Source of the DNA: an uncultured Verrucomicrobiae bacterium
GTDB lineage: Bacteria; Verrucomicrobiota; Verrucomicrobiia; Limisphaerales; UBA11358
Length of the DNA stretch: 64,000 bases
Direction: 5' to 3'
NCBI GenBank assembly: GCA_963714695.1
Contig: CAVQPQ010000001.1
Span: forward strand, 7,880 to 71,879
The translations under genes and the position numbers were made by a program. Under the pieces are notes generated by a model. That model ran no database searches. It saw nothing but the letters and a program-made list of their open reading frames with translations, and had not been told where the DNA came from. This document shows positions 6,818 through 59,792 of this stretch, one piece after another. The stretch's first letter is position 1; every line of letters begins with the position of its first letter.

Positions 6818-8268
6818 AAATCGGTCCATGTCACCAAATCGCCCAGCGCGGGCCGGCCATCGTGACGCCACGTTAGCGGCGGGTTTTGCATCCGGCCCAG
6901 CGGGCACACCCGCGTCACGCCCCAGCGCGCCAGTTGCTCCGCCAATTCGCGCGCTTTTCGTTCCGGCGCGGCGATGCCAACGGTCGAAACCTGGCCGCGC
7001 ATGCACTCGGCGTTTTGCAGCATCTCGTGCAAATCCTTCACGCCCTTCACATAAACAAACCGGTTCAGGCATGACAGTTGGAAACGCGGATCCGCTTCGT
7101 AAATCACCGTCCACGCCGTTGAATCCCGGCTGTGCCACATCAAAGTTTCCGCTCCCTCGGTGCGGGCGGCCGCGCGCACCTGGTAGAACGCCCGGCGCGA
7201 CGCGATGACCGCCGCATGTTCCGTTGCCAGCTCGCCGCGCGGCTCCGTTTGCTCGCGCCGCTCCAATTCATCCGCAAGCATTTCCGCGAATTGTTCCGGC
7301 GACACTTTGCCGCCAGACTGGACGTATATTACGTGCGGCGAAAGACAGCCCAACTGGTTCCACGCCACCACGTCATCCGCCGCGTGGGAAATGATCTGCC
7401 GGGCGCTCGAAACATGTAAAACCGCGCTGTCCACATAACCAAAACTCACGCGCTGGCCGTACCCAAGAAATCGGATTTTAACCGGCAAACGCGCGCGGAT
7501 GTCCGCCAATGTCTCGTCACTGCCCGTCGCCGTCACACAATCAGCCCCGGCAAACAACGCGGTTTCCAAATCAACTTTGCCACCGCGCCACTCGGCGATT
7601 TCCAGGCAGGCGCCCAGTTTGGGGTCGGCATCATAAAGCGAGTGGGCGAACAGCCGGGGCAAAAACGCCGCGCCGCTCGCGCATTTCACAAATTGCGCCG
7701 AACGGGTCAGCAGGCCGAGCACGATGCTCATCAACGCCGGATTCGGAACGTTGCCCGGCGCGATGTGGACGATAAATTCCGGGCCGCGCCAAAAATGACG
7801 TGGGACGTGTGACGTGGGACGTGGGGAAACTGCATCGCTTGTCACCTGACACCCGTCGCCTGTCACACTGATGGCATCGCCCAATTCCTGTTCCAACAAC
7901 GCCTGTAAATTTTCAGCTGTGAGTTGCCGGAAAAAATTGTCCAGGCCCTTTTCCAACGTGGCGCGGGAAAAAACAGGTCCCGGAGCGCCGGGCACCGTCC
8001 CGGCAACCTTCAACCCCTGGCTTTGGTTCAAGCCGAGGCGGTGCCCGGCGCTCCCCGTTTGCTCCAGGGTCAGCTTGCGGAACCGGTTTTCCGCCCGCAA
8101 CCAGTCCTCCGCCACGTCGCTCAGTGTTTTTATGAGCTGTTCCGTTGAACGGCCGGCAAGATAACGCTCGCGATTGCGCTTCAGCGTCTGGCACGCCTCC
8201 GTGATCATCGCCGGCGACAACGTCGCTTCCGGCGGCAGATCGGCGAGAAAATAATTGGGCAGGCTCAT
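6808..8268 (-). CDS. LuxC-like acyl-CoA/acyl-protein reductase
   Basis: Motif HIAPGNVPNPALMSIVLGLLTRSAQFVKCASG is typical of the LuxC family. Start chosen at the ATG at 8268, which forms an ATGA overlap with the luxE-like stop. Confidence 0.8.
   Translation of the reverse strand: MSLPNYFLADLPPEATLSPAMITEACQTLKRNRERYLAGRSTEQLIKTLSDVAEDWLRAENRFRKLTLEQTGSAGHRLGLNQSQGLKVAGTVPGAPGPVFSRATLEKGLDNFFRQLTAENLQALLEQELGDAISVTGDGCQVTSDAVSPRPTSHVPRHFWRGPEFIVHIAPGNVPNPALMSIVLGLLTRSAQFVKCASGAAFLPRLFAHSLYDADPKLGACLEIAEWRGGKVDLETALFAGADCVTATGSDETLADIRARLPVKIRFLGYGQRVSFGYVDSAVLHVSSARQIISHAADDVVAWNQLGCLSPHVIYVQSGGKVSPEQFAEMLADELERREQTEPRGELATEHAAVIASRRAFYQVRAAARTEGAETLMWHSRDSTAWTVIYEADPRFQLSCLNRFVYVKGVKDLHEMLQNAECMRGQVSTVGIAAPERKARELAEQLARWGVTRVCPLGRMQNPPLTWRHDGRPALGDLVTWTDFET
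7796..7868. repeat. Heptanucleotide arrays inside luxC-like ORF
   Basis: TGACGTG GGACGTG TGACGTG GGACGTG lies at 7796-7823. After 17 bp comes GTCACCT GACACCC GTCGCCT GTCACAC (7841-7868), which is partly complementary. Confidence 0.7.
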
Positions 8269-9539
8269 TGGATTGCGGAGTGCGGAATGTGGAGTGCGGA
8301 ATGAGCCATCAGCGAACATCCGCGCGGTTCGGCCAGGGTCGCGCGGCCAATTAATTCAAATCCGTTGCCGCGACGGATCCCCAAATCTTCCGTTTGAATG
8401 GCCATGACGGAAAACCCGTTCGCCAAATCGAACACGCGAATCAAACCGGTTTCGCCATCAGCCACCTCGCGCCCCGTCTCGGGCGAAACGATCTGGACAC
8501 GAGTCCAAGGGGGAAAATGAAAAAGACGGGTGACACATTCTGGGAGCGCCGGCGTCCCGCCGGCAAGTTCCTTTGTCGCGGTTGGAAGAATTCGCCGGCG
8601 GGGCGCCGGCGCTCCCAGGTCATACGCCTGCGAACTCAACTCGCTCATGCCGTATTCGCAGATGATGTGCGATGGCGGCACACCGAGTTTTTCGGTGATG
8701 AGTCCATGCAATTCAATTTTGGGCAGGGAACGGGATCGGCCTTTGTAACCGCCGGTTTCCATCACGCGTGACCCGGCGGGCAAATCGAAACGCAGATTTT
8801 TCTCCGCCAGAAAATCAAGCAAATGCACGAAGGAAAAGGCCGTGCCCAGAATCAATTGCGGATTGCGGATTGCGGATTGCGGATTGTTGCCCAGCGCCGC
8901 AATCGCACGGTCGAATTCCAGCGTCCACGCGCCGTCCGTTGCCAGTTTGCCGACGAACGCAGTTTCCGGCGCGCCCAGGTTTTGCCGCACGGTTTCAAAC
9001 ATGCGGACGAGTGACGAGTGTGGCGCCTGCGCTGGCGGCGGCGTCAAAATTATCAGTCCGCAATCCGCAATCCGCAATCCGCAATTCTGAAACACGTTTT
9101 CCAGGAACCAAGGCAGCAATGAAGCCTCATACAATTTCAACGACTCGAGCGAATGGAAGTGGCGGCTTGGACGTTGTTCCGTCGTACCGCTGGAATGGAA
9201 AACCGCGATGCGTTCCGCCGGCGTCAGACAGGTCAAATCCAGTTCCTTGAACGCCGATGTCGGCACGGCCGGAATGCGCGCCCAATGTTCGACAACTCCT
9301 GGCGCAAGGCCACGCGATTCGCAGATTTTCCGGTAGGCGGCGTTGGATTTAAATTGCAGCGCAAAAAGTTCGCACGCAAGCCGGTTAAAAACGTTATCGC
9401 AGGAGCCGACGCAAGGAGGCTTGTTTTTTGTTCTGCCAGTGGTAGCTGGAGAAAGACTCCTCACGTCGGCTCCTACATCGGAAAAGAAAATAATGGCCTC
9501 GCGCAAACGCGCGGCAAAGTTTGAAAGTTCGGTGATCAT
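8265..9539 (-). CDS. LuxE-like acyl-protein synthetase (adenylate-forming)
   Basis: Motifs FALQFKSNAAYRKICE, IPAVPTSAFK and VFHSSGTTEQRPSRHF. Start chosen at MITELSNF (9539). The ORF contains four repeat insertions (see findings). Confidence 0.8.
   Translation of the reverse strand: MITELSNFAARLREAIIFFSDVGADVRSLSPATTGRTKNKPPCVGSCDNVFNRLACELFALQFKSNAAYRKICESRGLAPGVVEHWARIPAVPTSAFKELDLTCLTPAERIAVFHSSGTTEQRPSRHFHSLESLKLYEASLLPWFLENVFQNCGLRIADCGLIILTPPPAQAPHSSLVRMFETVRQNLGAPETAFVGKLATDGAWTLEFDRAIAALGNNPQSAIRNPQLILGTAFSFVHLLDFLAEKNLRFDLPAGSRVMETGGYKGRSRSLPKIELHGLITEKLGVPPSHIICEYGMSELSSQAYDLGAPAPRRRILPTATKELAGGTPALPECVTRLFHFPPWTRVQIVSPETGREVADGETGLIRVFDLANGFSVMAIQTEDLGIRRGNGFELIGRATLAEPRGCSLMAHSALHIPHSAIQ
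8270..8304. repeat. Heptanucleotide array at the luxE-like 3' end
   Basis: GGATTGC GGAGTGC GGAATGT GGAGTGC GGAATGA. It encodes the C-terminal ..HSALHIPHSAIQ and starts directly beside the overlapping luxE-like stop and luxC-like start codons. Confidence 0.75.
8540..8618. repeat. Family A palindromic element (WERRRPAGE type), copy inside luxE-like ORF
   Basis: Arms are CTGGGAGCGCCGGCGTCCCGCCGGC and GCCGGCGGGGCGCCGGCGCTCCCAG. The ORF stays open and reads ..APAPRRRILPTATKELAGGTPALPE.. Confidence 0.85.
8853..8887. repeat. Heptanucleotide array (GGATTGC)n inside luxE-like ORF
   Basis: CAATTGC GGATTGC GGATTGC GGATTGC GGATTGT. Confidence 0.9.
9064..9098. repeat. Heptanucleotide array (CAATCCG)n inside luxE-like ORF, inverted partner of 8853-8887
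   Basis: CAGTCCG CAATCCG CAATCCG CAATCCG CAATTCT. It is the reverse complement of the 8853-8887 array, 176 bp away. Confidence 0.9.
9397..9477. repeat. Family C palindromic element inside luxE-like ORF (81 bp)
   Basis: Arms are GCAGGAGCCGACGCAAGGAGGC and GACTCCTCACGTCGGCTCCTACA. The element translates as ..VGADVRSLSPATTGRTKNKPPCVGS.. Confidence 0.8.
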
Positions 9540-16183: not shown

Positions 16184-16294
16184 TTAGACTGCACGTTGCA
16201 AACTCCTGTTCAAGCACGAATAATGCCCGTTGGAGCGCCGGCGACGATTTGCGGGATAATAACAATCAAAGGGTTTTCGGTTGGCGGGTGCAAT

Positions 16295-16377
16295 CCTGGA
16301 GCGCTGCCGTCCCGGCGGCGAGACGTTGGAAGGGACCCCGCCGTGAAAAACGCCGGCGGGACGCCTGCGCTCCCAGG
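16295..16377. repeat. Family A palindromic element
   Basis: Arms are CCTGGAGCGCTGCCGTCCCGGCGGCG and CGCCGGCGGGACGCCTGCGCTCCCAGG. Intergenic. Confidence 0.85.
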
Positions 16378-17048: not shown

Positions 17049-17651
17049 TTAATTGACTTTTGTTGTTGGGGTCGGCGAACTGGCCGGATGCGAGCCGAGC
17101 TGTTTTACGCCGTCCCAAACATACAGCAGCCCTGACATACCGGTGCATATCGCCGCTCCGAGCGTCCAGATTTTGAGCCAGCGCGCATTTAAATCGCGGT
17201 CCCAGTCCAGCAAAATCCAGATGACCACGATCATTTGCAAGACGGTCGCGATTTTGCCCATGATGCGCGGGCGCACCACCACTTTGCCGACGGTGAGCCG
17301 GATGACGGCGATGCCGATGAGCAGCAACAAATCGCGTCCGAGGATGGTGCCGGTGAGCCAAAGCGGAATTTGCCCGATATACGACCCGTGGTTGAAACTC
17401 AACGTGATGATGGCCGACACAAGCAGCAGTTTGTCCGCCAGCGGATCAAGGATGGCGCCCAGCTCGCTTTTTTGGTTGTAGCGCCGCGCGACGTAACCAT
17501 CCACACCGTCCAGAATCGCCGTGACCGCAAACGTTAGGAGCGCCAGCAGCCGGTGAACTTCGTTGCCGGTTTCGAGGTAATAAAGCAATTCGACGACAAA
17601 AAACGGAATCAGCAGGATCCGTAGAATCGTGATTTTGTTGGCGGTCGTCAT
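17049..17651 (-). CDS. pgsA: CDP-alcohol phosphatidyltransferase (PgsA-like)
   Basis: The signature DGVDGYVARRYNQKSELGAILDPLADK matches D-G-x2-A-R-x8-G-x3-D-x3-D. Confidence 0.85.
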   Translation of the reverse strand: MTTANKITILRILLIPFFVVELLYYLETGNEVHRLLALLTFAVTAILDGVDGYVARRYNQKSELGAILDPLADKLLLVSAIITLSFNHGSYIGQIPLWLTGTILGRDLLLLIGIAVIRLTVGKVVVRPRIMGKIATVLQMIVVIWILLDWDRDLNARWLKIWTLGAAICTGMSGLLYVWDGVKQLGSHPASSPTPTTKVN

Positions 17652-17669
17652 GGCCGTACACCAGCACTT

Positions 17670-17706
17670 TTAACGCAAAGATGCAAAGATGCAAAGCCGC
17701 AAAAAG
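17670..17706. repeat. TTAACGCAAAG-type octamer array (family E)
   Basis: TTAAC followed by GCAAAGAT GCAAAGAT GCAAAGCC GCAAAAAG. Confidence 0.7.
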
Positions 17707-17756
17707 ATTATCGCAGTTCGTCGGAAAGCAGCCGGCGATTGGACCGGCAGCCCCGT

Positions 17757-17830
17757 CCTGGGAGCGCCGGCGGCTCGCCGGCAGGTTAATCTCACGCGCA
17801 ACTCGCCGGCGGGACGCCGGCGCTCCCAGG
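17757..17830. repeat. Family A palindromic element
   Basis: Arms are CCTGGGAGCGCCGGCGGCTCGCCGGC and CGCCGGCGGGACGCCGGCGCTCCCAGG. Lies between pgsA and purE. Confidence 0.9.
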
Positions 17831-17924
17831 AATAATACTGGCGGCTGGGCAAACTGCTTCCCGTTGGATTGCCGCCAATTTCAAGGGATGACTTTTGGTT
17901 TTGAAATGGGTAATTTGTCTGCCA

Positions 17925-18425
17925 ATGAAAACGAGTGAATCCAAACCTTTGATCGGTATTTTGATGGGCAGCGACTCGGACTGGCCGACGATGAAAGCCG
18001 CTGCCGATACGCTCACCGAATTCGGTATCGCCAGCGAGGCCAAGGTCATCTCGGCGCACCGCGATCCGCATGGCCTGGAGAAATATGCCGGCAGCGCGAT
18101 CAAACGCGGCCTGCGCGTCATCATCGCCGGCGCGGGCGGCGCTGCGCACTTGCCGGGCGTGACGGCGGCATTCACCACCCTGCCCGTCATCGGCGTGCCC
18201 ATCGAAAGCAAATCGCTCAAGGGCCTCGACTCGCTGCTCTCCATCGTGCAAATGCCGCCGGGTGTGCCGGTGGCCACCGTTGGCATCGGCGCGGCCAGAA
18301 ACGCCGGGCTGCTTGCCGTGCAAATCCTGGCCGTGGGCGACGCTCGATTGCAAAAGGCGCTGGCCGGCTTCAAGCAAAAGCTCGCCTCAGAATCGCGCGC
18401 GAAAAACAAAACCCTCGCCGCCTGA
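17925..18425 (+). CDS. purE: N5-carboxyaminoimidazole ribonucleotide mutase
   Basis: Motifs [15 protein letters not shown] and AGGAAHLPG. Confidence 0.95.
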
Positions 18426-18618
18426 CCCTCCCCCAGGTTGATTTCAAGACAACGTGTCTCGGCAGCAGAAATCCCGAAAATCCCGCCCATTCCCTTGCCA
18501 TTGACTGCCTTAACCCAGCGGCAACTTTTTCGGTTGTCTGGTATGAAGGTTGCTATTTTGAGACAGTGACCTAGACAGCCATCCCGGAGGGTGGAGGAAA
18601 ATTTGACATTTTGTAATC

Positions 18619-18777
18619 ATGACTAAATATCTTTTAAACCACACGAGCAAGCTGCTGTTCCCGCATTTGGCACGCGACCAGCGCAAACAACAGTTGAAAG
18701 TCATCATGCTCGTTTTCATCACCAGTCTTTGCTGCGCCGGCTCGTTGGCAATGTGGATGATTTTGGGACGACGCTGA
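18619..18777 (+). CDS. Small hydrophobic ORF (52 aa) inside the purE-proximal insert, speculative
   Basis: Peptide MTKYLLNHTSKLLFPHLARDQRKQQLKVIMLVFITSLCCAGSLAMWMILGRR has a basic N-half and one C-terminal TM helix. It is too short for the ORF track. The local GC is lower than the surroundings. Confidence 0.25.
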   Translation: MTKYLLNHTSKLLFPHLARDQRKQQLKVIMLVFITSLCCAGSLAMWMILGRR

Positions 18778-18863
18778 CGCACACTGACAGTTTAATATCT
18801 GTCCGCCCGGGTTATAGCGCCGGGTATGCCGGACGCAACCATCAGGGTTGGCGCGCAGAGTAG

Positions 18864-18980
18864 GCCAGGCTGCCGGTTATGCAAATCCTGGCGGGGCGAC
18901 GCGAGATTGCAAAAGGCGCTGGCCGGTTTCAAAAAAGCTTGCCGTGAAATCACGCGCGAAGAACAAATCGCTGGCGCGAC
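18864..18980 (+). pseudogene. Decayed duplicate of the purE 3' end
   Basis: About 80% identical by eye to 18303-18422, with indels. It still encodes [13 protein letters not shown], which matches the purE C-terminus. Confidence 0.7.
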
Positions 18981-19112
18981 AACCCTGTTTTATAAGGGAA
19001 AAGGTCCAGTCGCCCGCCCGCCGCTCCGGGTTGTCCATTATAATTTTCTTCGATGTTTTCAGTTGTGGTTCGGACGCCGGGATGATTATTCTCGCCGCAC
19101 AACCTCAATTCC

Positions 19113-19424
19113 ATGAAAACAAAACTACGCCCCCTGTTGTTTTTCTCATCCACGCTGTTCATCGCGCCGCCGTTGTTCGCGGCGGACACCGCACCCGCCG
19201 CCACCTGGCGCGCGCAATCACTCGGCATGGCCATCGGCAACGTGCTGATTTTTGCCGCCATCGGCATTGTCGCCGCCATCATCGGCTTCAAGGTGTTCGA
19301 CAAATGCACGCCGGGACATTTGGAGAAGGAGATCCTCGAAAACAAAAATGTTGCCGCCGCCATCATCGCCGCCGCGGTGATCCTGGGGGTCAGCATCATC
19401 ATCGCCGCGTCCATGCTGGGTTAA
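19113..19424 (+). CDS. DUF350 (YjfL-like) inner membrane protein
   Basis: 103 aa with a signal/TM segment plus two further TM helices. It shows the NVAAAII pattern typical of DUF350. Confidence 0.75.
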   Translation: MKTKLRPLLFFSSTLFIAPPLFAADTAPAATWRAQSLGMAIGNVLIFAAIGIVAAIIGFKVFDKCTPGHLEKEILENKNVAAAIIAAAVILGVSIIIAASMLG

Positions 19425-19437
19425 GCGGGCTTGCGAA

Positions 19438-19818
19438 ATGAAACGGAGCCAACGCATCCGCTTGATTTTGCTGGGCGGCCTGTCCGTCGGCGCGCTGACG
19501 GGCTGCGAGCAGAAGCCGTCCATCAGCGCGGAGAATGTTTATACGAACAATTTTTACATTCCCGGCGCCGGTTATTATCACGCGCCGTTTCGCAACTGGT
19601 ATTCGCTGCCTTACAATCATTTTGACGCGCAGAAAAATCTTTATTTTTACGGCGGCCAGTGGGGCGCGCAGCCGTTTGAGAGCATCACCAACATTTCCTC
19701 GCCCACACCCCAGGCCGCGCAGTTCGCGCAAAATTCGCGCACGGACATTTCGCGCGGCGGCTTTGGCGGTTTTGGGAGCGGACATTATTCCGGCGGCGGC
19801 TGGGGATTTTACTCCTGA
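19438..19818 (+). CDS. DUF1190 (YjfM-like) lipoprotein
   Basis: Lipobox LTGC after MKRSQRIRL. The Gly-rich C-terminal RGGFGGFG resembles E. coli YjfM. Confidence 0.6.
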   Translation: MKRSQRIRLILLGGLSVGALTGCEQKPSISAENVYTNNFYIPGAGYYHAPFRNWYSLPYNHFDAQKNLYFYGGQWGAQPFESITNISSPTPQAAQFAQNSRTDISRGGFGGFGSGHYSGGGWGFYS

Positions 19819-21023
19819 TGAAACGCCATCTGTGCCAACCCCGCTCCGACTGGCGCGAAAAAGTTGAAAGCGTCGGCCTGACGTTTCATTCGCACGACAC
19901 CGGGCCATACTGGGACGAATCCGCCTGCTACGAACTCACCCGCGCCGAGGTGGATGAACTGGAACGGGCCGCGAACACGCTGCATTTTCTTTGCATTGAC
20001 GCCGCCGAGGCGGTCATCCAGAACAACTGGTGGGCGCGGCTGGAAATTCCCGAAGCCGCTGTGCCGTGCATCTTGAAATCATGGGAACGCGATGACTTCA
20101 GCCTCTATGGCCGGTTCGATTTTGCCTACGACGGCGTCACCCCGCCGAAACTGCTTGAATACAACGCCGACACGCCAACCGCACTGGTCGAGGCCGCCGT
20201 CGCCCAATGGTTCTGGCTGCTGGAAACCCATCCCGGCGCGGACCAATTCAATTCCATCCACGAGCGGCTCATCGCGGCGTGGAAGCGGTTGGCCGGAGCG
20301 CCGAGCCCCGGCTCGGCACGGGCGAACGAATTTTCCCAACTCGCCGGGTCGGAGACCGGCACTCCGAGTTTGCAGACACAGCCGATAATTCATTTCAGTT
20401 GCGTCAAGGAACTCGCCGAAGACGAGATGACGGTGCTCTATTTGCGCGACACCTGCGAGCAGGCCGGCGTGAAAACAAAGGCGGTTTTCATTGACGACAT
20501 CGGCTGGCATCGGACGAAAAAGATTTTCGTGGATCTCGACGAGGATCCCATTCAACGCTGCTTCAAGCTGTATCCGTGGGAATGGCTGTGGCAGGAGGAA
20601 TTCAGCGCGCATCTGGCGGACGACTGCCTGCTATTCATCGAGCCGGCGTGGAAGATGCTTTTGAGCAACAAGGGGCTGCTGCCGGTGCTGTGGGAATTGT
20701 TTCCCGGCCATCCGAATCTGCTTCCGGCGTTTGAATTCGCCGCGCCGCTGGGCAGCCGCTACGTCCGCAAACCGAAATTGAGCCGCGAAGGCTGCAACGT
20801 CTCCTGGGTCGAGGGCGGCGTAGTGGTCGAGGAAAACGGCGGCAACTATGGCGAGGAAGGGTTTGTTTTCCAATCGCCCGCCGCGCTGCCGGACTTTGAC
20901 GGCAATCATCCGGTGTTTGGCGTGTGGGTGGTGGATCACGAAGCCGCCGGGCTAGGCCTCCGCGAAGACACGCGGCGCATCACCGGCAACCTCAGCCGGT
21001 TCGTGCCGCACTTTTTCCCATGA
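19818..21023 (+). CDS. Glutathionylspermidine synthase-like ATP-grasp protein (YjfC/YgiC family)
   Basis: Motifs YGRFDFAYDG, LLEYNADTPT and LLSNKGLLPVLW. Confidence 0.9.
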   Translation: MKRHLCQPRSDWREKVESVGLTFHSHDTGPYWDESACYELTRAEVDELERAANTLHFLCIDAAEAVIQNNWWARLEIPEAAVPCILKSWERDDFSLYGRFDFAYDGVTPPKLLEYNADTPTALVEAAVAQWFWLLETHPGADQFNSIHERLIAAWKRLAGAPSPGSARANEFSQLAGSETGTPSLQTQPIIHFSCVKELAEDEMTVLYLRDTCEQAGVKTKAVFIDDIGWHRTKKIFVDLDEDPIQRCFKLYPWEWLWQEEFSAHLADDCLLFIEPAWKMLLSNKGLLPVLWELFPGHPNLLPAFEFAAPLGSRYVRKPKLSREGCNVSWVEGGVVVEENGGNYGEEGFVFQSPAALPDFDGNHPVFGVWVVDHEAAGLGLREDTRRITGNLSRFVPHFFP

Positions 21024-22219
21024 GCTTTGACAATCCAACCCGGCTCCGCATCGGAATGCACGGAAACTTTGCCGGCAAGGATTACCGTGTCGCCGGCCGC
21101 GTCGTCATGGGTGAGACCGAAGGCGGCGAAACTTACTATTGGAACGAATTCAACCTTGAATCCACGGACGGCAGTTACGCGGATCTGGTGTTTGAAGAAA
21201 CCGAACGCGGCGGCGAGTGGCGGCTGTTCACCCTGTTCGAGCCGGAATATCCGATGACCGCCGCGGATGCCGCCACCAAGCGCGTCGGCGACCACCTCAA
21301 TCTCACCGGCGAAGACGTCCGCATCACGCTGCGCAGCGCTTCGCGCGTTTATCACATCGAAGGCCAGGCGCCCGAAGGCGTCGAGGTCGGTGACGTGGCG
21401 AACTATTTCAACGCCGAGGCCGGCAACATTATGCAGGTCGTGAGCTGGACCGGCGACGAGGTGGAGTATTACAACGGCGTGAACATCCCGCAAAGTGTTG
21501 TCGCCGGCGCCTTCAATATACCACGCGCCTCCAATGCCAGCTCCTTCAGCGGCGGCGATTCGTCATGGCTGGGGGGAAATGACGAAAATTACAATAGCGG
21601 CGTCAAAATTTCCCTGAAGGTGGCTCTCGTCATTTTTATTTTCATCATTTTCTTTGGCCGGTTTTTTTCCTTCTCGACAAGTTACGAATCCGAACCGGTG
21701 AAAAAGATTCCCGCCGGTGCGCCGCCGCTGGCCGTCGGCGCGGGCGGCAAATTGAACGATAAGCATTATCGCGTCATCGGCCACGCCGTGGTCGAAATCG
21801 CCGAGGTCGGTTTGGATTTTGAGCGGCACGAATATCAACTGACGGATGACGATGGCATAACCGGCCTGCTGGTCTGCGGCCTGAAGCCGGGCGAAACAAA
21901 CTGGACGCTGTTTACGCCGCTTTCCAATCCATTGCCCCCAAGCCCGCAGCAATGCGCCGCCAAAAAAGCCGGCGACATGGTGAACATTGACAGCGTGATC
22001 GCCTTTGTCCACGAACTGTTTCTGTCCACCACCCGGCAGGTGGAGGGCACGGCATCAGCGGACTGGCAGCCCGGCGATATGCGCTTCGGCTTTGAGGCGC
22101 AGGGGGTAAACGATTTGCTGCTGGCCCGCTGGAATGCCGCCGCGGTCAACTTCCAGCGCGGATTGAACGTTTCAGCCAAGGATGCCACCAACGCCTTTGC
22201 TCCGTCGTCCAAGCAGTAA
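21020..22219 (+). CDS. DUF4178 domain protein (two DUF4178-like halves around a TM segment)
   Basis: ATGA overlap with the upstream gene. GKDYRVAGRVVM..YYWNEF recurs as DKHYRVIGHAVV..ERHEYQL after the TM VALVIFIFIIFFGRFF. Confidence 0.65.
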   Translation: MSFDNPTRLRIGMHGNFAGKDYRVAGRVVMGETEGGETYYWNEFNLESTDGSYADLVFEETERGGEWRLFTLFEPEYPMTAADAATKRVGDHLNLTGEDVRITLRSASRVYHIEGQAPEGVEVGDVANYFNAEAGNIMQVVSWTGDEVEYYNGVNIPQSVVAGAFNIPRASNASSFSGGDSSWLGGNDENYNSGVKISLKVALVIFIFIIFFGRFFSFSTSYESEPVKKIPAGAPPLAVGAGGKLNDKHYRVIGHAVVEIAEVGLDFERHEYQLTDDDGITGLLVCGLKPGETNWTLFTPLSNPLPPSPQQCAAKKAGDMVNIDSVIAFVHELFLSTTRQVEGTASADWQPGDMRFGFEAQGVNDLLLARWNAAAVNFQRGLNVSAKDATNAFAPSSKQ

Positions 22220-22275
22220 CTGGCAGTAGCTGGTTTGCCATCCTGCTGGCTTTCGGTTAATCTCCGGGCCGACAA

Positions 22276-24087
22276 ATGAACAATCCGAACACAGAAAATC
22301 CGCCGCCCGCCGCCCCGTCCGATTTTATCCGCGACATCGTGGAAAAACACGTCGCTGAGAAGAAATATCCGCGCATCCACACGCGTTTTCCGCCCGAACC
22401 GAACGGCTACCTGCACATCGGCCATGCCAAGAGCATCTGCCTGAACTTTGGCATCGCGCGCGAATTCGGCGGCATCTGCAACCTGCGCATGGACGACACC
22501 AACCCGGCCAAGGAAGACGTCGAATACGTGGATTCCATCATCGAAGATGTGAACTGGCTCATCAGCGCCTGGGCCGATAAAAATCTTGGCCTCAAGCCGA
22601 AAGGGAAAACGCCCGAAGCTGTCACGTCAAACGGCAAGCCGGATTTTTATCTGGGAGCAGTTACGGGAACATCCAACATCCAACATCCAACATCCAACAT
22701 CCAAGTCGAAGCGTTTTACGCCTCGGACTACTTCGACCAGATTTACGAATACGCCGTCGCGCTCATCAAGAAAGGCAAGGCCTACGTCTGCGACCTGACG
22801 CCGGACCAGACGGATGAATACCGCCGCAACGCCAAGGAAAGCCCGTTCCGCAACCGCAGCATCGAGGAAAGTCTCGACCTGTTTACGCGAATGAAGAACG
22901 GCGAGTTCCCCGATGGCACGCGCACGCTGCGCGCGAAGATTGACGTGACCGCGCCGAACATCTGGATGCGCGACCCGCTCATTTACCGCATCCGCCACGC
23001 CGAACATCATCACACCGGCGGCAAATGGTGCATTTATCCGATGTACGATTTCGCGCATTGCCTGAGCGATTATCTCGAAGGCATTACGCACAGCATTTGC
23101 ACGCTGGAATTCGAGGTGCATCGCCCGCTGTACGACTGGATATTGGAGAACCTGGATCTGCCGCGTCCCCTACCCCATCAATATGAATTCGCGCGTCTCA
23201 GCCTCACCTACACCATCATGAGCAAACGCAAGCTCATGCAGCTTGTGAACGAAAAACTCGTAACCGGCTGGGACGACCCGCGCATGCCCACCATCAGCGG
23301 CATCCGGCGGCGCGGCGTCACTGCGGAAGCCCTGCGCGCGTTTGCCTACAACATCGGCATCACCAAATACAACGGCCTCACCGACGTGGCCGTGCTGGAA
23401 TTCGCCATCCGCGAAGACCTGAACAAACGCGCCCTGCGCCGCCTCGCCGTGCTGCGCCCAATCAAGGTCATCATCACGAATTTTCCGGAAGGCAAAACCG
23501 AGGAATTGGATGCCGTCAACAACCCCGAGGATGAAAACGCGGGCAAACGGACAATTCCTTTCAGCCGCGAACTATTCATCGAGCAGGACGATTTCAAGGA
23601 AGTTGCCGTGCCGAAATATTTCCGGTTGAAACCCGGCGGCGAAGTCCGGCTGAAATACGCCTACATCATCAAATGCGACGAAGTGGTGAAGGACGCCGCC
23701 GGCAACATCACCGAGCTGCGCTGCACCGCCGATCTCGACAGCAAGAGTGGCGGAGCCACGGCGGCGCGCAAAGTTAAGGGAACAATTCATTGGGTAAGCG
23801 CCGCGCACGCCGTGGATGCCGAAGTACGCCTCTACGACCGCCTGTTCACCGAAGCCGAGCCGGAAAAAGATGGTCGCGATTTCAAGTCCGTGCTCAACCC
23901 GCACTCGCTCGAAGTGGTGACGGCCAAATGCGAGCCGAGCCTGAAAGACGTAAAACCGGAACTGCGCTATCAATTCGAGCGCCTCGCCTACTTCGCGTCG
24001 GACAAAGACACCACGCCCGGCAAGCTGGTTTTGAATCGGACGATAACGCTGAAAGACACTTGGGCGAAGGAAGCGCAGAAAGGTTAA
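22276..24087 (+). CDS. glnS: Glutamine--tRNA ligase
   Basis: Motifs [17 protein letters not shown] (HIGH) and VMSKRK-type TIMSKRKL. It is collinear with E. coli GlnRS as I recall it, apart from an insertion after DVNWL. Confidence 0.95.
22668..22705. repeat. Heptanucleotide array (ATCCAAC)n inside glnS ORF
   Basis: Four exact ATCCAAC units plus ATCCAAG. It translates as [12 protein letters not shown]. Confidence 0.9.
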
Positions 24088-24094
24088 CCCAAAG

Positions 24095-24337
24095 ATGAGC
24101 GTCGAGAAAACATTGGAAAAGCTGCTGCGCGGAGAATCCGATGCCAACATCCGCTTTGAGGAGCTTTGCCATTTGCTCCAGGCCAAAGGTTTTCGGATGC
24201 GCATATCGGGCAGCCATCATATTTTCACCCAGCCCGGCGTGTTGGAGCGCATCAATCTCCAACGCGAAAGCTCAAAGGCAAAACCATATCAGGTTCGACA
24301 AGTGCGAAAGATTCTGGCAAACTACAGAATGTTATGA
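24095..24337 (+). CDS. hicA: HicA-family mRNA interferase toxin
   Basis: 80 aa. [18 protein letters not shown] is typical of HicA/YcfA. ATGA overlap with hicB. Confidence 0.8.
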
Positions 24338-24549
24338 AACAGAACACATACGAGATGATTATCTGGTGGAGCGCCGAAGACGGTGCCTACGTGGTGGATG
24401 TGCCGGAGCTTCCCGGCTGCATGGCTCACGGCTCGACGCGGCAGGAAGCCATAAAAAACGCCGAGGACGCCATCAAGTTCTGGCTCAAGACCGCGAAGGA
24501 CGACGGTCTGGAAATCCCGCAACCGCGCGGGCGGCTGGTTTTTGCGTGA
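24334..24549 (+). CDS. hicB: HicB-family antitoxin
   Basis: 71 aa. [29 protein letters not shown] is typical of the HicB N-domain. Confidence 0.8.
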
Positions 24550-24716
24550 CGGCGAAGTGCGAACCGAGCCTGAAAGACGCGAAGCCGAAGCTGCGTTATC
24601 AATTCGAGCGCCTCGCCTATTTCGCGTTGGACAAAGACAGCGCGCCCGGTAAGTTGGTTTTGAATCGTACGATCACGTTAAAAGACACCTGAGCGAAGGA
24701 AGCGCAGAAAGGGTAA
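24546..24716 (+). pseudogene. Displaced duplicate of the last 57 codons of glnS
   Basis: 171 bp, collinear with 23917-24087 without indels. 149 of 171 bases are identical by my count. TGG (Trp) is replaced by TGA. Confidence 0.85.
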
Positions 24717-24723
24717 ATGCTTG

Positions 24724-25686
24724 ATGATCACAAGCCCGATCCGAAAGCTACGAAACCTACTTATCCTGTTTGCCTGCCTGCTGACGGCGCTGGTGTTGGT
24801 CGCTGTTCCATTTTGTAACAGGGAACCACGCTACCAGGGCCACTCCCTGAGTTACTGGGTCACGCTTTACGGCGACACCGCTTGGGATGAAGGCGGCGAC
24901 CCGAAAGCACGGGAAGCGATTTCTCACATCGGGACTAACGCCTTACCGTTTCTATTGAATTGGATCCGTTATGAGCAACAACCATCTTGGGTTAGAACCG
25001 CATCCATATCTTTTTTCTCGCGCAGAGTACCAAAGGCTATCACATCCGAAGCACTTGTGAAATGGGTATGCGAGGATAAGGAAGAATCCAGAGCGGATGG
25101 TGCGGCCCACGCTTTCTATGCTCTTGGTCCCCAGGTCCAGCCTGCGCTTCCCGAGCTCTTCAGACTGATGAACGACCGCAGTTCCACCAACGTCTCTCCC
25201 CGGCCTCAACTTGCTCCATGCGAGCGGGCTGAACTTGCCCTGCTCTATTCCAGAAACGATGACGCTATACCATTGTTCCTCGCACACATCGCCAACACGA
25301 ACGCCCCGAACCGCGCCGAAGTGGTCTTTTTGGTAGGTCTCTACGATCTGACAACAAATGCCGGACCCGCCGTACCAATGCTTATCCAATGCCTCATAGA
25401 CAATGATCCCGAAGTGATAAAAGAGGCGGCCAGGGCACTTACCAAATGCGACCTCAAGCCAGGATTCATCTTGCCAGCACTGACTAACTGTCTTGTGACT
25501 TCTACCAACCCTCTTCTTCGCAGCCGGGCAATCTGGGTACTTGGCAACTTCAAACCCCAAGTCCGCTTGACCCAACCGTTTCTCATCGCGGCACTCCAGG
25601 ATCCTGACGCCAACGTGCGCAAGCAAGCAACGAACGCCCTCCTGAAAATCGCTCCTGAGGTATTCACCAACACGCCAACACAGTAA
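24724..25686 (+). CDS. HEAT-repeat protein with N-terminal membrane anchor
   Basis: TM LLILFACLLTALVLVAV. HEAT-like repeats include DPEVIKEAARALTK and DANVRKQATNALLKI. Confidence 0.65.
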   Translation: MITSPIRKLRNLLILFACLLTALVLVAVPFCNREPRYQGHSLSYWVTLYGDTAWDEGGDPKAREAISHIGTNALPFLLNWIRYEQQPSWVRTASISFFSRRVPKAITSEALVKWVCEDKEESRADGAAHAFYALGPQVQPALPELFRLMNDRSSTNVSPRPQLAPCERAELALLYSRNDDAIPLFLAHIANTNAPNRAEVVFLVGLYDLTTNAGPAVPMLIQCLIDNDPEVIKEAARALTKCDLKPGFILPALTNCLVTSTNPLLRSRAIWVLGNFKPQVRLTQPFLIAALQDPDANVRKQATNALLKIAPEVFTNTPTQ

Positions 25687-25733: not shown

Positions 25734-25863
25734 TTAACGCAAAGACGCCAAGATGCAGAGAAAAGACCGGGGTTCATTTGGAGTGCGGTGACAGGTCACC
25801 GCTTTTCAATGACGCGACATGTCGCGTCAAACCAAAGCGCCGTCATGCCGGTGCACTCCAAAA
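25734..25863. repeat. Family E head plus an 86-bp palindromic element
   Basis: The head is TTAACGCAAAGACGCCAAGATGCAGAGAAAAG. It is followed by TTTGGAGTGCGGTGACAGGTCACCGC ... GGTGCACTCCAAA. The centre is the perfect 20-bp palindrome TGACGCGACATGTCGCGTCA (25810-25829). Confidence 0.7.
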
Positions 25864-27088: not shown

Positions 27089-27559
27089 CTAGCGATGCAG
27101 GCGATCGGAATTTGAAATGCCCACCAATCCCAGCGGCACATCGTCCACACGCGGGCGAAAGACTTTCTCAATGGCATCCAGCAGTACAGTCCGGTTGATC
27201 GGTTTTCGCAAGTAGCCCACTGCGCCGGCGGCCAGACAACGATTCCTAAATTCCGCCGGGTCAGCCCCGGAAATGACGATGATGGGGATGCGTCTGGCCT
27301 GGGGGTTCATGCGTTTGATCCAATGAATGATCAGAAAGGCATCCCAGGTGTTGCCGCTCTCAAAGCCATCGGATGAAAAGAAAATATCGAGCAGGATGAG
27401 GTCCAGCTTTTCCTGGCGCACGATGGCAAAGGCTTCGGGACCGTCAACGGCGGTAAACACCTCGTAAAACTTGGGTTTGAGGGCCAGCGACAAGACTTTT
27501 AAAGCCACCGGATTGTCGTCAACAACCAGTATCTTTTTGGTTGGAAAACTTAACGCCAT
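27089..27559 (-). CDS. Stand-alone response regulator receiver protein
   Basis: Start at MALSFPTKKILVVDD. Motifs LILLDIFF and IIVISG, with GYLRKP at the end of the REC fold. Confidence 0.8.
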   Translation of the reverse strand: MALSFPTKKILVVDDNPVALKVLSLALKPKFYEVFTAVDGPEAFAIVRQEKLDLILLDIFFSSDGFESGNTWDAFLIIHWIKRMNPQARRIPIIVISGADPAEFRNRCLAAGAVGYLRKPINRTVLLDAIEKVFRPRVDDVPLGLVGISNSDRLHR

Positions 27560-27633
27560 AACAACAGAAACAGCATGCAAAATGCGCCAGAAAAAGGGAA
27601 GACAAATTTTTGGCCATTTGCCTATGGCGATGG

Positions 27634-27664
27634 GAGCGTGACAGGTCGCATTTTTTTGCGTTAA
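27634..27664. repeat. Family E-related fragment, reverse orientation
   Basis: GAGCGTGACAGGTCGCATTTTTTTGCGTTAA shares the GTGACAGGTC and GCGTTAA parts with 25734-25863. Confidence 0.5.
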
Positions 27665-27677
27665 ATCTTTTGTCTCG

Positions 27678-28058
27678 ATGGCGGATGAATCGTTCAAAGA
27701 ATTTGTGCTGGACCAGTTGCGCGCATTGCCGGATGTGCGTGCCAAGGCGATGTTCGGCGCGCATGGACTGTATCAAGACGAACATTTCTTCGGGATTTTG
27801 GACGAGGGCCGGTTGTTTTTCAAAACGGACGCGCAATCGCAGGCGGATTATGTGGCGCGCGGCATGGAACCCTTCACTTACGAATCGAGGGGGCGCACGC
27901 TGACGATGAGTTATCACGAAGTGCCGCTGGACGTGCTGGAAAATGCGCCGGAACTGGCGGCTTGGGCGCGCCGGGCAATCGAGGTGGCCGCCCGCAGCGG
28001 GAAATCTCGGAAACCATCCCGCCGGAACAAAGGAAATCAGTCCGACGCGCCGGTGTAA
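27678..28058 (+). CDS. TfoX/Sxy N-terminal domain protein
   Basis: FKEFVLDQL..VRAKAMFGAHGLYQDEHFFGIL..GRLFFKTD is typical of TfoX_N. Confidence 0.75.
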   Translation: MADESFKEFVLDQLRALPDVRAKAMFGAHGLYQDEHFFGILDEGRLFFKTDAQSQADYVARGMEPFTYESRGRTLTMSYHEVPLDVLENAPELAAWARRAIEVAARSGKSRKPSRRNKGNQSDAPV

Positions 28059-32292: not shown

Positions 32293-35200
32293 TTACGGTG
32301 TGGCGGAACGGTAAAACTGGACCGGATGGCTGCCGGCATTCGTATCGGTGAATTGCCATGCGCCCGCGGGTCCGGCCACGTTGGTGCAGATGGGTTGCCA
32401 GATGACCGGCGGGGTCAGATTGGTGGCTGCGAAGACACGGCTGCCGATGTTCGGAGCGGTCAGCAAATTGAGCGTCACGCTGCCGTCCGGATTGAAAACG
32501 GACTTTGAAATGAGCGGCGCGGTGGCCACGCTCAACGTGACCAAGCTGCTGGTGAAGCTGCCGTAAGGACCGGTGACGATGACGGAATAATTACCGCTAT
32601 TGTTCATGGTGATATTGTTCAGGGTCAGCGTGGGATAGCTGGCAAACAGGCTCACTTTACAGATACGGTTGTTGAGTGTGTCTGCGATCAACAGATTGCC
32701 GGAGGCGTCCGTTTCCACGCCTCCAGTGAGATTAAAACTCGCATTGGTGATGGCGCCATTGCCCGCTACGGTGGTGATCACGCCGTTCGTGTCCACTTTA
32801 CGAATGCAGTTGTTGAGCCAATCCGCAATGAACAAATTGCCGAAGGGGTCCAATACGACGCCTGTCGGCAGATTTAGCATGGCATTGGTGGCCGCGCCAC
32901 CGTCACCGGAATAACCGCGTGTGCCGTTGCCTGCAACGGCGGTGATGATACCGTTGACATCCACTTTACGGATGCAGTTATTGCCTGTATCTGCAAAAAA
33001 CAGATTGCCGGAGATGTCAAACACGAGGTTTTCAGGATTATGCAGGATGGCATTGGTGGCCGCGCCACCGTTGCCGGAATAACCGCCTGTACCATTGCCC
33101 GCAACACTTGTAATAATGCCACTGCTGTCCACTTTGCGGATACAGTTGTTGAAATAGTCCCCAATGAACAGATTGCCGAAGGCATCCAAGGCCACACCGA
33201 AAGGACCGTGCAGTCCGGCATTAGTCGCCGGGCCACCATCACCGAAATAGCCGCCTGAACCATTGCCTGCCATAGTGGTGATCATGCCGTTGGTATTTAT
33301 TTTGCGGATGCGGTTGTTGGCGTAATCCCCAATGAACAGGTTCCCGTTGGCGTCCACGGTTACACCGTAGGGTGCGTTCAGACTGGCATTGGTGGCCGCG
33401 CCGCCGTCACCGGAAAAGCCGTTTATGCCGTTGCCTGCCACAGTGGTGATGATGCCATTGACGCTCAATTTGCGGATCCGATTATTGGATGCATCCGCGA
33501 TGAACAGGTTGCCGAAGGCATCCCAGGCCATACCCAAGGGGCTGTTCAGCATGGCATTGGTGGCCGGACCGTCGTCGCCGGAAAAGCCGGGACTGCCGTT
33601 GCCTGCCACGGTGGTCATGCCGTATGGCAGATTAGTGCCGTTCAACTGCCATTGATAGGTGAACGGGCCGGTATCGAAAATTTCTACATTGAATGTCGCC
33701 TTGCCGCCCATCATCACCAATTGATTGGCCGGCTCAACAGACACTAATTCGCCTCTCAAATGAGCCACACTGCTGGTCACACTGCCCCACATATTGGTGA
33801 TGATAACCGTATAATCACCCACGTCATTGGTGGCGGTGGCGTTCAGGAGCAGGTTGGTTGTCGTCGAACCAGAAAGGTTGCCATCATCGGCCAGATTCGC
33901 CCCGTTTTTCTGCCATTGAAAATGAAAAGGCACCGTGCCAATGACGGAAACACCAAATGAGGCCGGCGTCCCATATCGGACTGCAAGATTTTGAGGTTGA
34001 GACACAATGATCGGCGGCGACGAGGCCACAGTCAACGTGACAATACTGCTGGTAAAGCTGCCGTAGGGAGTGGTGATGATTACGGAATAATTGCCGGCGT
34101 CGCGCGCGGTGACGTTGTTCAGGGCAAGGGTGGGATAACTGGCAAACAATGCCACTTTCCGGACGCGGTTGTTGCTGGTGTCCGCAATAAACAGGTTGCC
34201 GAAAGTGTCCACCGCCACACCCAATGGTTGATACAGGCTGGTATTGGTGGCTGCGCCACCGTCACTGGAATAACCGGAACTGCCATTGCCCGCCACGGTC
34301 GTAATCATGCCATCAATACTTACTTTGCGGATGCGGCTGTTGATGTCGTCCGCGATGAACAGGTTGCCGGAAGCATCCAAGGCCACACCGTATGGAAAAT
34401 ACAGCTTGGCATTGGTGGCCGCGCCACCGTCGCCGGAATAGCCGTTTATGCCGTTGCCCGCCACAGTGGTGATGATGCCGTTGATGTCCACTTTCCGAAC
34501 GCGAAAGTTTAACGAGTCTGAAATGAACAAATTGCCGAAGGCATCCAAGGCCACACCAAAGGGATGATTCAGGCTGGCATTGGTGGCTGTCCCACCGTCG
34601 CCGGAATAACTGCCTGTGCCATTACCCGCTACTGTGTTAATCATGCCATTGGTGTCCATTTTGCGAACCCGGTTATTTAAGAAATCCGCAATGTACAGGT
34701 TGCCTAAATTGTCAAATGTTATGCCGTAGGGGTGGTTCAGGCTGGCATTGGTGGCGGGGCCGCCATCGCCGGAATAACTATTTGTACCGTTGCCGGCCAC
34801 AGTCGTAATGATGCCATTGGTGTCCACTTTGCGAATCCTATTGTTGTTATAGTCTGCAATGAAAAGATTGCCGGAAGGATCCGTAACGGTGCTTCCGGAG
34901 GAAGACAGGCTGGCATTGGTTGCAGGGCCGCCATCGCCGGAATAACTGTTTGTCCCGTTGCCCGCCACGGTGGTAATCACGCCGTTGACACTTACTTTGC
35001 GAATGCGATTGCTTGAGCCTGTAATGAACAAATTGCCGGAGATGTCCAAGAACACACTGAAGGGATGCACGGAGGCATTGGTAGCGGGACCGCCGTCGCC
35101 GGAAAAAGCATTTGTGCCGTTGCCGGCCACGGTGGTAATGATGCCATCCGGCAAATTGGTGCCATTCAACTGCCATTGAAAGGTGAACGGGCCGGCGCCG

Positions 35201-49060: not shown

Positions 49061-49202
49061 CCAACCTGGGAGCGCTGGCGTCTCGCCGGCGAGTTTCGCG
49101 ATGAAGAATTTCCTCATCCACTCGCCGCCGGGACGCCGGCGCTCCCGGGAGAGCAATCGTCAGCGGTGGCTCTTTGATTGTTTGTCAAAGACATAATCCC
49201 GC
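49061..49202. repeat. Family A element, long 142-bp variant
   Basis: Family A palindrome plus a conserved tail TGGCTCTTTGATTGTTTGTCAAAGACATAATCCCGC. Collinear with 56181-56322. Confidence 0.85.
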
Positions 49203-53719: not shown

Positions 53720-53806
53720 TGTAGGAGCCGACGTGAGGAGGCTTGTTTCCCGCCGCAAATCACAGGTTTCCGAAGACGATTGAGACTCGTTACCTCGTCT
53801 CCTACA
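53720..53806. repeat. Family C palindromic element (intergenic, upstream of aminotransferase)
   Basis: Arms are TGTAGGAGCCGACGTGAGGAGGC and GAGACTCGTTACCTCGTCTCCTACA. Confidence 0.85.
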
Positions 53807-53869
53807 GATCGCAGGAATTCCTTTCTTGCACTCCCCTGCCCGGCTCGTAATCTTTCCGCGATTAAAATT

Positions 53870-56180: not shown

Positions 56181-56322
56181 CCAACCTGGGAGCGCTGGCG
56201 TCTCGCCGGCGTGTTTCGCTGCGAAGCATTCCCCAAACACTCGCCGCCGGGACGGCGGCGCTCCCAGGCTTGCAACCGTCAAGTTATGGCTCCTTGATTG
56301 TTTGACAAAGACATAATCCCGC
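56181..56322. repeat. Family A element, long 142-bp variant
   Basis: Same length and order as 49061-49202. The 36-bp tail differs at 2 positions. Confidence 0.85.
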
Positions 56323-59638: not shown

Positions 59639-59709
59639 GCGCCTCAATCGTAACTGGCGGAGGAAGCTTCTGGCGAAATGATTTTTTCACCGGACGCAGT
59701 TCGACACCG

Positions 59710-59792
59710 CCTGGGAGCGCTGGCGTCCCGCCGGCGTGTTGGAGATGTCTGTCGCAACGCAGCAAGCTGGCGGGACGCCGGCGCTCCCAAGG
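59710..59792. repeat. Family A palindromic element
   Basis: Arms are CCTGGGAGCGCTGGCGTCCCGCCGGCG and GCTGGCGGGACGCCGGCGCTCCCAAGG. Lies upstream of hrpB. Confidence 0.85.

Follow-up and report, generated by a model that had tools for sequence, protein, structure and literature searches.

A displaced second copy of the purE 3′ end in a Verrucomicrobiota genome, a possible relic of C-terminal displacement by general recombination

Introduction

C-terminal displacement has been described for rhs genes, with a circular intermediate proposed (Jackson et al. 2009, PMC2935791), and the effector–immunity arrays of type VI secretion systems (T6SS) have been ascribed to homology-facilitated illegitimate recombination (Kirchberger et al. 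2017, PMC5361080). This article examines a comparable layout at a housekeeping gene, purE, in a stretch of 64,000 nucleotides from an uncultured Verrucomicrobiae bacterium (order Limisphaerales; GenBank assembly GCA_963714695.1, contig CAVQPQ010000001.1, positions 7,880 to 71,879 of the forward strand), referred to below as the window. The intact purE gene is followed by a spacer, a gene for a 52-residue peptide (pep52, product of pepA) and a decayed second copy of its own 3′ end. The chances are judged to be even that this structure is a relic of C-terminal displacement via general recombination and not the footprint of cassette insertion. Comparable layouts occur at glnS in the window and at ilvD in another genome.

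The likeness to rhs, T6SS and contact-dependent growth inhibition (CDI) loci lies in an incoming 3′ tip that, together with a linked gene, replaces the end of a conserved gene, so that old tips pile up downstream, as in the ilvD array of locus L183. The differences are that the target is a housekeeping enzyme gene, that the tips encode nearly the same residues and nothing diversifies, and that the cargo is a toxin–antitoxin pair or a small membrane protein and not an immunity gene.

A second precedent is the icd gene, where e14 and phage 21 integrate by site-specific means and leave the icdC pseudogene (PMC13626634). As at purE and glnS, the insert supplies the functional gene end, and the displaced, diverged 3′ fragment forms a direct repeat at the far side; here, however, an integrase and a fixed crossover site are lacking, the insert measures 0.4–0.9 kb, and the purE cargo is homologous to the native downstream gene. 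The minimal mobile elements of Neisseria, which are small cassettes without mobility genes, are swapped by transformation and homologous recombination in their flanks (PMC3787668). The present loci resemble them in size, in lacking mobility genes and in possible exchange through conserved flanking sequence, but both arms would come from one gene, as a duplicated tail, and not from two neighbours.

Chromosomal integrons also carry compact, promoterless cassettes of one orientation, often with toxin–antitoxin genes and with repeats of about 100–150 nt, and the ilvD array shares these traits. Its repeats are, however, coding tails of the upstream gene and not attC sites, intI and attI are absent, and the recombination points vary. 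What precedes the L183 array is ilvD and not IntI or attI, and the repeats align with the coding 3′ ends of purE, glnS and ilvD orthologues, although no search was aimed at attC structure. Finally, the glnS cargo resembles type II HicAB systems, in that it fits the HicA_toxin and HicB-like Pfam models and its genes overlap by 4 nt; this likeness is confined to glnS, as the purE cargo has no similarity to any toxin–antitoxin family.

The repeated 3′ end of purE

The product of the window purE gene is 83–88% identical to those of L168, L171, L174 and L177 (labels of this kind denote loci fetched from other genomes; for coordinates see Table 1). A gapped local alignment pairs positions 18256–18418 with 18818–18975 at 77.6% identity (165 columns, 7 gap sites), and BLAST of the window against itself recovers the match with E = 4.5e-24; the repeat is real and far above chance. 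It sets in at codon 111 and extends past the stop codon, with about 5 nt after the stop still matching. The second copy (c2) is split over reading frames by several frameshifts, one frame retaining 13 residues and another LAVKSRAKNKSLAR, and is 69–76% identical to all purE tails examined. In the entire window, self-comparison finds gene-tail repeats at purE and glnS only.

A previous interpretation made from the letters alone (the sequence-only reading) had already described this repeat and the decay of its second copy, and the gapped alignment, the self-comparison and the broken frames bear it out. It had placed the copies from 18303 and 18864; the repeat as such stands, but its onset lies 47 nt further upstream, which leaves 392 bp (18426–18817) between the copies where 438 bp had been given, and a unit of 562 bp. 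The insert is indeed AT-richer (GC 0.455 at 18500–18799, as against 0.60–0.69 in purE), and the 52-codon reading frame exists as described.

Two joints delimit the displaced tail. On its left, about 17 nt past pepA share homology with the native pep 3′ flank, and the scrambled stretch between them and c2 is, as judged from its sequence, an illegitimate joint. On its right, the upstream region of a DUF350 gene begins about 30 nt beyond c2, with neither the spacer nor the second pep gene that come after c2 in L171 (see below); the displaced spacer and pepB were therefore lost in the window lineage.

The DUF350 gene opens a block (19113–22219) with a 126-aa reading frame, a GSP_synth-family gene and DUF4178. 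In the window and in L081 the block separates pep from glnS; it is absent from this position in L168 and L171–L179, and precedes glnS in the distant relatives L085 and L089.

The same unit in related genomes

L171, L172 and L173 carry the same unit, 560 nt long as against 562 nt in the window, and have a purE gene whose product is 83% identical to that of the window. Window and L171 align collinearly over 779 nt (78% identity), and the sequence at the joint between the pep flank and c2 is homologous in the two; the joint was therefore made once and is common to both by descent or recombination. In L171, the two tails are 92% identical in a 157-nt BLAST match and 88.5% in a longer alignment, and c2 contains one in-frame stop and a 1-nt deletion.

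In L171, c2, the 525-nt spacer behind it and pepB together line up collinearly with the purE tail, spacer and pep gene that L081 has in single copy (86% over 872 nt), and the c2 tail and the functional tail of L174 share 98% identity. As the displaced tail is still trailed by its own spacer and a second pep gene, the duplication spans the 'insert' itself; from these alignments, the latter is best described as a second version of the native segment that runs from the purE tail to the small gene. The sequence-only reading had called for a comparison of purE loci in relatives: the small reading frame proves conserved. The longer duplication spanning the insert in L171 comes close to the segmental duplication that it had named as speaking against itself.

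The ends of purE fall into two types. End A (…KNK(T/I)LAA*) is found in c1, the functional tail, of both the window and L171, and window c2 is A-like; end B (…KNQNLKI*, in L168 …KNQNLKV*) is found in L171 c2, L174, L177, L081 and L168. The body of L171 c1 is like that of the relatives, but its last ~35 nt and the spacer that follows are of the window (A) type, so that it looks like a recombination product. In reference genomes, a contig scan found only distant purE relatives (at most 70% identity) that do not share the gene order.

The serious rival to displacement is a plain tandem duplication within the genome, which has a real but distinctly minor probability. A single microhomology join, from about 17 nt past pep to purE codons ~104–111, would have doubled a 0.56-kb segment of purE tail, spacer and pep; the tail of copy 2 would then have decayed, and the second spacer and pep would later have been deleted in the window lineage, with no foreign DNA involved. 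The two units of L171 have equal gene content (purE tail, spacer, pep), as this predicts, and the A-like end and some synonymous states are common to window c1 and c2. The tail opens with ~17 nt that match the native pep 3′ flank, where CTGTCC offers a possible microhomology with purE codons 104–105, and the distance of ~0.29 between c1 and c2 is compatible with neutral decay since about the time of the split between window and L171 (synonymous divergence, dS, 0.4–0.7). However, the parts of the L171 units diverge unevenly: identity is 88–92% between the tails but 74% in nucleotides between the pep genes (dS 0.87), and the spacers, of 200 and 525 nt, are unalignable. In addition, L171 c2 has a B end and is 98% identical to a relative's functional tail, and a tandem duplication leaves both glnS-hicAB and ilvD unexplained, where the cargo is unrelated to the sequence after copy 2.

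The same comparisons make it very improbable that the purE structure is what is left of a larger integrative element (for instance a prophage or genomic island) that brought a replacement tail to the purE 3′ end and has since lost its integrase and most of its cargo. The flanking architecture equals that of icd and icdC around e14 (PMC13626634), and the GC content of the insert is lower. Against this, the whole insert is made up of elements native to the purE neighbourhood in relatives, namely a spacer and a small gene, the compact 560-nt unit also occurs in another species, and there are no phage or integrase remnants.

The small gene downstream of purE

The sequence and the family alignment show pep52 with a polar N-terminal half, after which come about 22 hydrophobic residues. 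Among 1.84 billion cluster representatives, 15 relatives were found at E ≤ 1e-3, and a profile search of a larger collection returned at least 200 at the same threshold; all matches that bear an organism name come from metagenome-assembled genomes of Verrucomicrobiota, Limisphaerales or Verrucomicrobiae. The relatives are mostly 52–54 aa long and mostly labelled hypothetical proteins. Their consensus is MTEYLxKRTGKLLFPHLARDQRK, a hydrophobic helix and GRH, with two subgroups, pepA and pepB; pairwise ratios of non-synonymous to synonymous divergence (dN/dS) are 0.2–0.7, and the best-kept part in the family alignment is the polar N-terminal motif and not the hydrophobic helix.

A pep gene stands directly 3′ of purE, on the same strand, in L081, L168, the P0005 contig and L171–L179, which are all the relatives with enough flank. 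The usual order in relatives is AhpC (−), pgsA (−), purE, pep, a second pep in some, and glnS. In L174 (7001–7335) and L177 (7001–7337), pepA and pepB lie in tandem, 14–20 nt apart, between purE and glnS, and no purE pseudo-tail intervenes.

Searches of Pfam, NCBIfam, PADLOC and the PDB with pep52 gave no match. The synonymous-site value is 0.29 in the invariant N-terminal motif and 0.29–0.31 elsewhere, and shows no extra constraint; the spacer upstream of pep has an ordinary fold (z = 0.21) and no Rfam match. The gene pep52 is therefore conserved as a protein. Between window and L171, the dS of pepA is 0.22, as against 0.4–0.7 for core genes, a value from too few sites to carry weight. A promoter and terminator scan, itself uninformative, found no sigma-70-like promoter in 17600–19500. 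Taken from gene order and family alignment, the 52-aa gene is a native, conserved gene for a small predicted membrane protein and not an imported toxin.

The sequence-only reading had regarded this reading frame as an imported addiction cassette, a view contradicted by a conserved family directly after purE in L081, L168, L171–L179 and a further contig. A narrower version, compatible with any duplication model, takes the peptide for a type I toxin whose antisense RNA would lie in the spacer, making the purE unit an addiction cassette. It is a doubtful proposition. The peptide is small (<60 aa) and has one hydrophobic helix, tandem paralogues occur in L174 and L177, a non-coding spacer of 200–570 nt with a few conserved motifs precedes it, and its position equals that of toxin–antitoxin cargo in the parallel loci. 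Yet the polar motif, and not the hydrophobic helix, is best conserved, neither synonymous sites (0.29 vs 0.29–0.31) nor spacer fold are out of the ordinary, the databases named above and Rfam give no match, and the placement beside purE is stable across the clade and not patchy. If the assignment is true, pep52 is a hitherto unannotated membrane protein stably linked to purE throughout an order of Verrucomicrobiota; this purE-linked family and the ilvD cassette array described next are the most valuable by-products of the analysis.

Toxin–antitoxin cargo behind glnS and ilvD

The glnS locus, which the sequence-only reading had named as a companion with toxin–antitoxin cargo, is confirmed as such. 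The two glnS tails align over 171 nt without gaps (E = 1.8e-54 in the window self-BLAST; 87% identity) and flank hicA and hicB, which overlap by 4 nt (ATGA, 24334–24337) and, according to their Pfam matches and arrangement, form a type II toxin–antitoxin pair in one operon. The copies differ at 22 positions, 15 of them third codon positions, with 13 codons changed synonymously and 6 non-synonymously, and comparison with outgroups places derived changes in similar numbers on both. Changes that are mostly synonymous, lie on both copies and include no indels fit two versions that were once functional in separate lineages; duplication of the resident glnS tail followed by decay appears, from the same pattern, to fit poorly.

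The glnS arrangement recurs in L180, where HicA is 95% identical to that of the window and the same 629-nt glnS-hicAB unit has the same joint between hicB and tail. The displaced glnS tail of L180 has a 12-nt in-frame insertion, a different end and a different following gene. At the place of this insertion, in the variable C-terminal region of glnS, L081 has a 42-nt in-frame insertion (7455–7515).

Relatives of hicA make up a very large family of 1754 clusters (E ≤ 1e-5), and identity is no lower than 83% for the 120 listed; no relative was found in viral contigs. One relative, 90% identical, lies 28 nt past ilvD in L183, L184 and L185. In L183 and L184, three small cassettes stand in a row behind ilvD, and behind each comes a copy of the ilvD tail (Table 1). 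The tail copies are ~90% identical to one another, with mostly synonymous differences, and two of the three cassettes have toxin–antitoxin signatures. Two reading frames of the array were searched against Pfam, NCBIfam, PADLOC and the PDB and gave no matches. The start of the gene cut off in cassette 3 looks MazF/PemK-like, to the eye only and unverified. If the present reading is right, the array would document, in compact natural form, displacement events that happened repeatedly. Elsewhere, a close hicAB relative occupies a plain intergenic position and lacks any flanking repeat.

Further gene tails with small inserts are present at glnS of L180 and at ilvD of L183 and L184. Across 2.2 Mb of fetched loci, matches outside the clade in L024 and L103 were short dispersed repeats and not gene tails; further matches in L013, L042, L044 and L052 were left out of the inspection. 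The near-equal cargo size that the sequence-only reading took as evidence does not hold, since units range from ~0.4 to 0.95 kb. Its claim of a recurrent layout does, at glnS in window and L180 and at ilvD in L183 and L184, while its dedicated insertion mechanism finds no such backing: junctions are scattered, at about −139, −70 and −146 nt from the stop in ilvD and about −170 nt in glnS and purE, the ilvD, glnS and purE joints have no motif in common, and the annotation of identical public contigs contains no integrase, transposase or recombinase Pfam family within ~10 kb of the window loci. Overall, its observation is confirmed and its interpretation partly supported.

A dedicated cassette-insertion system acting in trans, integron-like or based on a site-specific integrase, with the gene tail as attachment site for small promoterless cassettes, is accordingly unlikely. 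What speaks for it is the layout at three different genes, an ilvD array that is integron-like in its compact cassettes of one orientation and its ~140-nt repeats of ~90% identity, hicAB limits that are precise to the reading frame in two gene contexts, and the great abundance of the hicA family. The repeats, however, are true coding tails of the upstream gene and not attC-like; besides the varying positions and the missing motif, one junction truncates a cargo gene; no integrase or transposase match lies nearby; a close hicAB relative does without a flanking repeat; and mainly synonymous tail differences speak against duplication of a resident target at insertion.

For the same reason, target-site duplication from a staggered cut is disfavoured, the tail differences being mostly synonymous with changes on both copies. 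A diversity-generating retroelement was rejected, as the mismatches comprise all base changes and are not adenine-specific, indels occur, and the neighbourhood has no reverse transcriptase domain. A single 5.7-kb import ending in the purE and glnS pseudo-tails came into question, given the 6 kb between the loci and the adjacent purE, pep and glnS of some relatives; it was rejected since L081 has the same boundary of the DUF350 block yet lacks hicAB, since the decay of the pseudo-tails is unequal (at least 6 indels in purE, none in glnS), and since the purE unit of L171 comes without that block.

The region just 3′ of glnS differs in content in every relative examined and acts as a hotspot for accessory genes. 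Its contents (Table 1) include hicAB, an HNH_5 gene, an APH-like gene and unrelated reading frames, one of them Mrr-like by eye and unconfirmed by family search. About 3–3.5 kb downstream of glnS, at ~27089–28058, the window has a response-regulator gene (−) and a gene with a TfoX_N domain, as annotated on the identical contig L162. TfoX-family proteins are competence regulators in some bacteria, and the gene could have a bearing on DNA uptake.

Proposed displacement of gene ends by general recombination

Varying junctions, the lack of a nearby recombinase and mostly synonymous tail differences point to gene-anchored recombination with one illegitimate joint, and general recombination has more evidence on its side than a dedicated mechanism. 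At purE in window and L171, at glnS in window and L180 and at ilvD in L183, the layout is the same: the 5′ part is kept, the 3′ tip and a linked gene are replaced, and the old tip lies downstream.

At purE, DNA from a related lineage may have been imported that carried the last ~56 purE codons, the spacer and pep, and was orthologous to the resident region. On its left side, it would have recombined by homology within purE; its right end, ~17 nt past the pep stop, would have been joined illegitimately to resident purE near codons 104–111, where a joint is visible in the sequence. The imported tail would then serve as the working end of purE, and the resident tail, with its own spacer and pep, would be displaced downstream and decay. 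As purE sequence now stands on both flanks, homologous recombination could move the allele into other purE-bearing lineages, which would explain the same junction in window and L171 despite displaced tails that differ in type and decay. In the window lineage, a later deletion or rearrangement would have removed the displaced spacer and second pep, so that the DUF350 block directly follows the pseudo-tail.

The same process is proposed for glnS-hicAB in the window and for the ilvD array in the other genome. Homology on both flanks would likewise account for identical joints beside non-identical displaced tails in L180. Toxin–antitoxin cargo is probably over-represented through retention, because cells that lose the cargo by recombination between the repeats would die. 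Candidate microhomologies are GTGA at the joint of hicB and glnS and CTGTCC at the joint of pep flank and purE.

A bolder extension holds that housekeeping tails flanking a toxin–antitoxin module, or possibly the 52-aa peptide as a type-I-like toxin, make it a selfish 'knock-in' cassette that needs no recombinase, spreads between verrucomicrobial lineages by host homologous recombination alone, is protected from loss through the repeats by its toxicity and stacks, arrival upon arrival, behind ilvD, glnS and purE. This is regarded as improbable.

Several observations weigh against displacement by general recombination. No candidate donor genome, with the A-type unit alone and free of the pseudo-tail, was recovered. 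Window c1 and c2 have the A-like end and two synonymous states in common, which tandem duplication predicts equally well. Synonymous divergence in purE is higher in codons 111–164 than in 1–110, but it is so in control pairs without the unit as well. The purE–spacer′–pepA–pepB order of L174 and L177 cannot be derived in one step from the L171 arrangement, nor the reverse. Random joints do not predict hicAB limits that lie almost exactly at the ends of reading frames in both the glnS and the ilvD contexts. Natural competence, or another route of DNA uptake, is not known for these organisms, and the retention argument for toxin–antitoxin cargo is itself inferential.

If displacement by general recombination is true, the 3′ ends of essential genes are landing pads where gene-anchored recombination brings in DNA and displaced tails remain as datable scars. 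It would also offer toxin–antitoxin systems a simple route of spread and persistence that needs no mobility gene. With a copy of a core-gene tail on either side, a module finds homology arms in all related genomes, and its loss by recombination between the arms would be punished by the toxin.

Table 1. Features of the purE, glnS and ilvD loci and repeat copies in the window.
Feature	Locus	Position	Strand	Remarks
purE (N5-CAIR mutase/AIR carboxylase)	window	17925–18425	+	intact, functional; likely start ATG 17925; Pfam AIRC 3.2e-63
purE repeat copy 1 (c1)	window	18256–18425	+	final 56 codons and stop; A-type end …KNKTLAA*
Spacer A	window	18426–18618	+	GC below surroundings; collinear with L171 spacer; short motifs in common with L169
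pepA	window	18619–18777	+	52 aa; conserved polar N-terminus (KLLFPHLARDQRK) and one hydrophobic C-terminal helix
Tail and junction	window	18778–18817	+	~17 nt homologous to native pep 3′ flank, then ~15–23 nt scrambled up to c2
purE repeat copy 2 (c2)	window	18818–18985	+	displaced 3′ end, pseudogene fragment; codons 111–166 and former stop
Breakpoint zone and DUF350 upstream region	window	18986–19112	+	breakpoint zone ~18986–19018, then conserved; L081 alignment resumes ~19019
DUF350 gene	window	19113–19424		Pfam DUF350
glnS	window	22276–24087	+	intact; tRNA-synt_1c Pfam domains annotated on identical gene in L162
glnS repeat copy 1	window	23917–24087	+	last 171 nt of glnS
hicA	window	24095–24337	+	Pfam HicA_toxin 4.1e-6 (27.2 bits, cut-off 27); starts 8 nt past glnS stop
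hicB	window	24334–24549	+	Pfam HicB_lk_antitox 9.7e-13; stop overlaps first bases of glnS copy 2
glnS repeat copy 2 (displaced 3′ end)	window	24546–24716	+	87% identity to copy 1, no indels; one nonsense change TGG to TGA
purE	L171	6301–6801		c1 is the functional tail
Spacer after purE	L171			199 nt
pepA	L171	7001–7159		followed by 32-nt tail
Second purE tail (c2)	L171	7192–7361		begins at codon 111, as in window
pepB	L171	7876–8037		after displaced spacer of 525 nt; then glnS
ilvD array	L183; L184	3831–5943; 2631–4743		three small cassettes behind ilvD, each then an ilvD tail copy
ilvD cassette 1	L183; L184			hicAB, then ilvD tail copy of 136–139 nt
ilvD cassette 2	L183; L184			Rv0078B-like antitoxin (Pfam 5.5e-9) and 189-aa gene, then ilvD tail copy of 67–70 nt
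ilvD cassette 3	L183; L184			72-aa gene and second gene cut at joint, then ilvD tail copy of 143 nt
glnS 3′ flank	window; L089; L172; L168; L180	24088–25700; 5680–6374; 9963–10520; 6170–6595; 4646–5695
Palindromic repeat copies	window	8540–8619; 16281–16377; 17756–17831; 25777–25862; 49061–49202; 56181–56322; 58249–58353; 59709–59789

Other repeats in the window

A family of GC-rich palindromic intergenic repeats of ~80 nt (CCTGGGAGCGCCGGCG…CGCCGGCGCTCCCAGG) is dispersed through the window and gives rise to spurious reading frames and spurious Rfam microRNA (miRNA) matches. The only Rfam matches in 17600–25000 are of this kind, to the GC-rich palindrome upstream of purE. A 142-nt direct repeat (85% identity; 49061–49202 and 56181–56322) overlaps this family, and a 93-nt inverted repeat (87% identity) is found at 45860–45952 and 53723–53815. 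A reading frame of 1525 codons on the reverse strand (32293–36870) consists of many tandem units of ~168 nt with 60–80% mutual identity, and would encode a large repeat protein.

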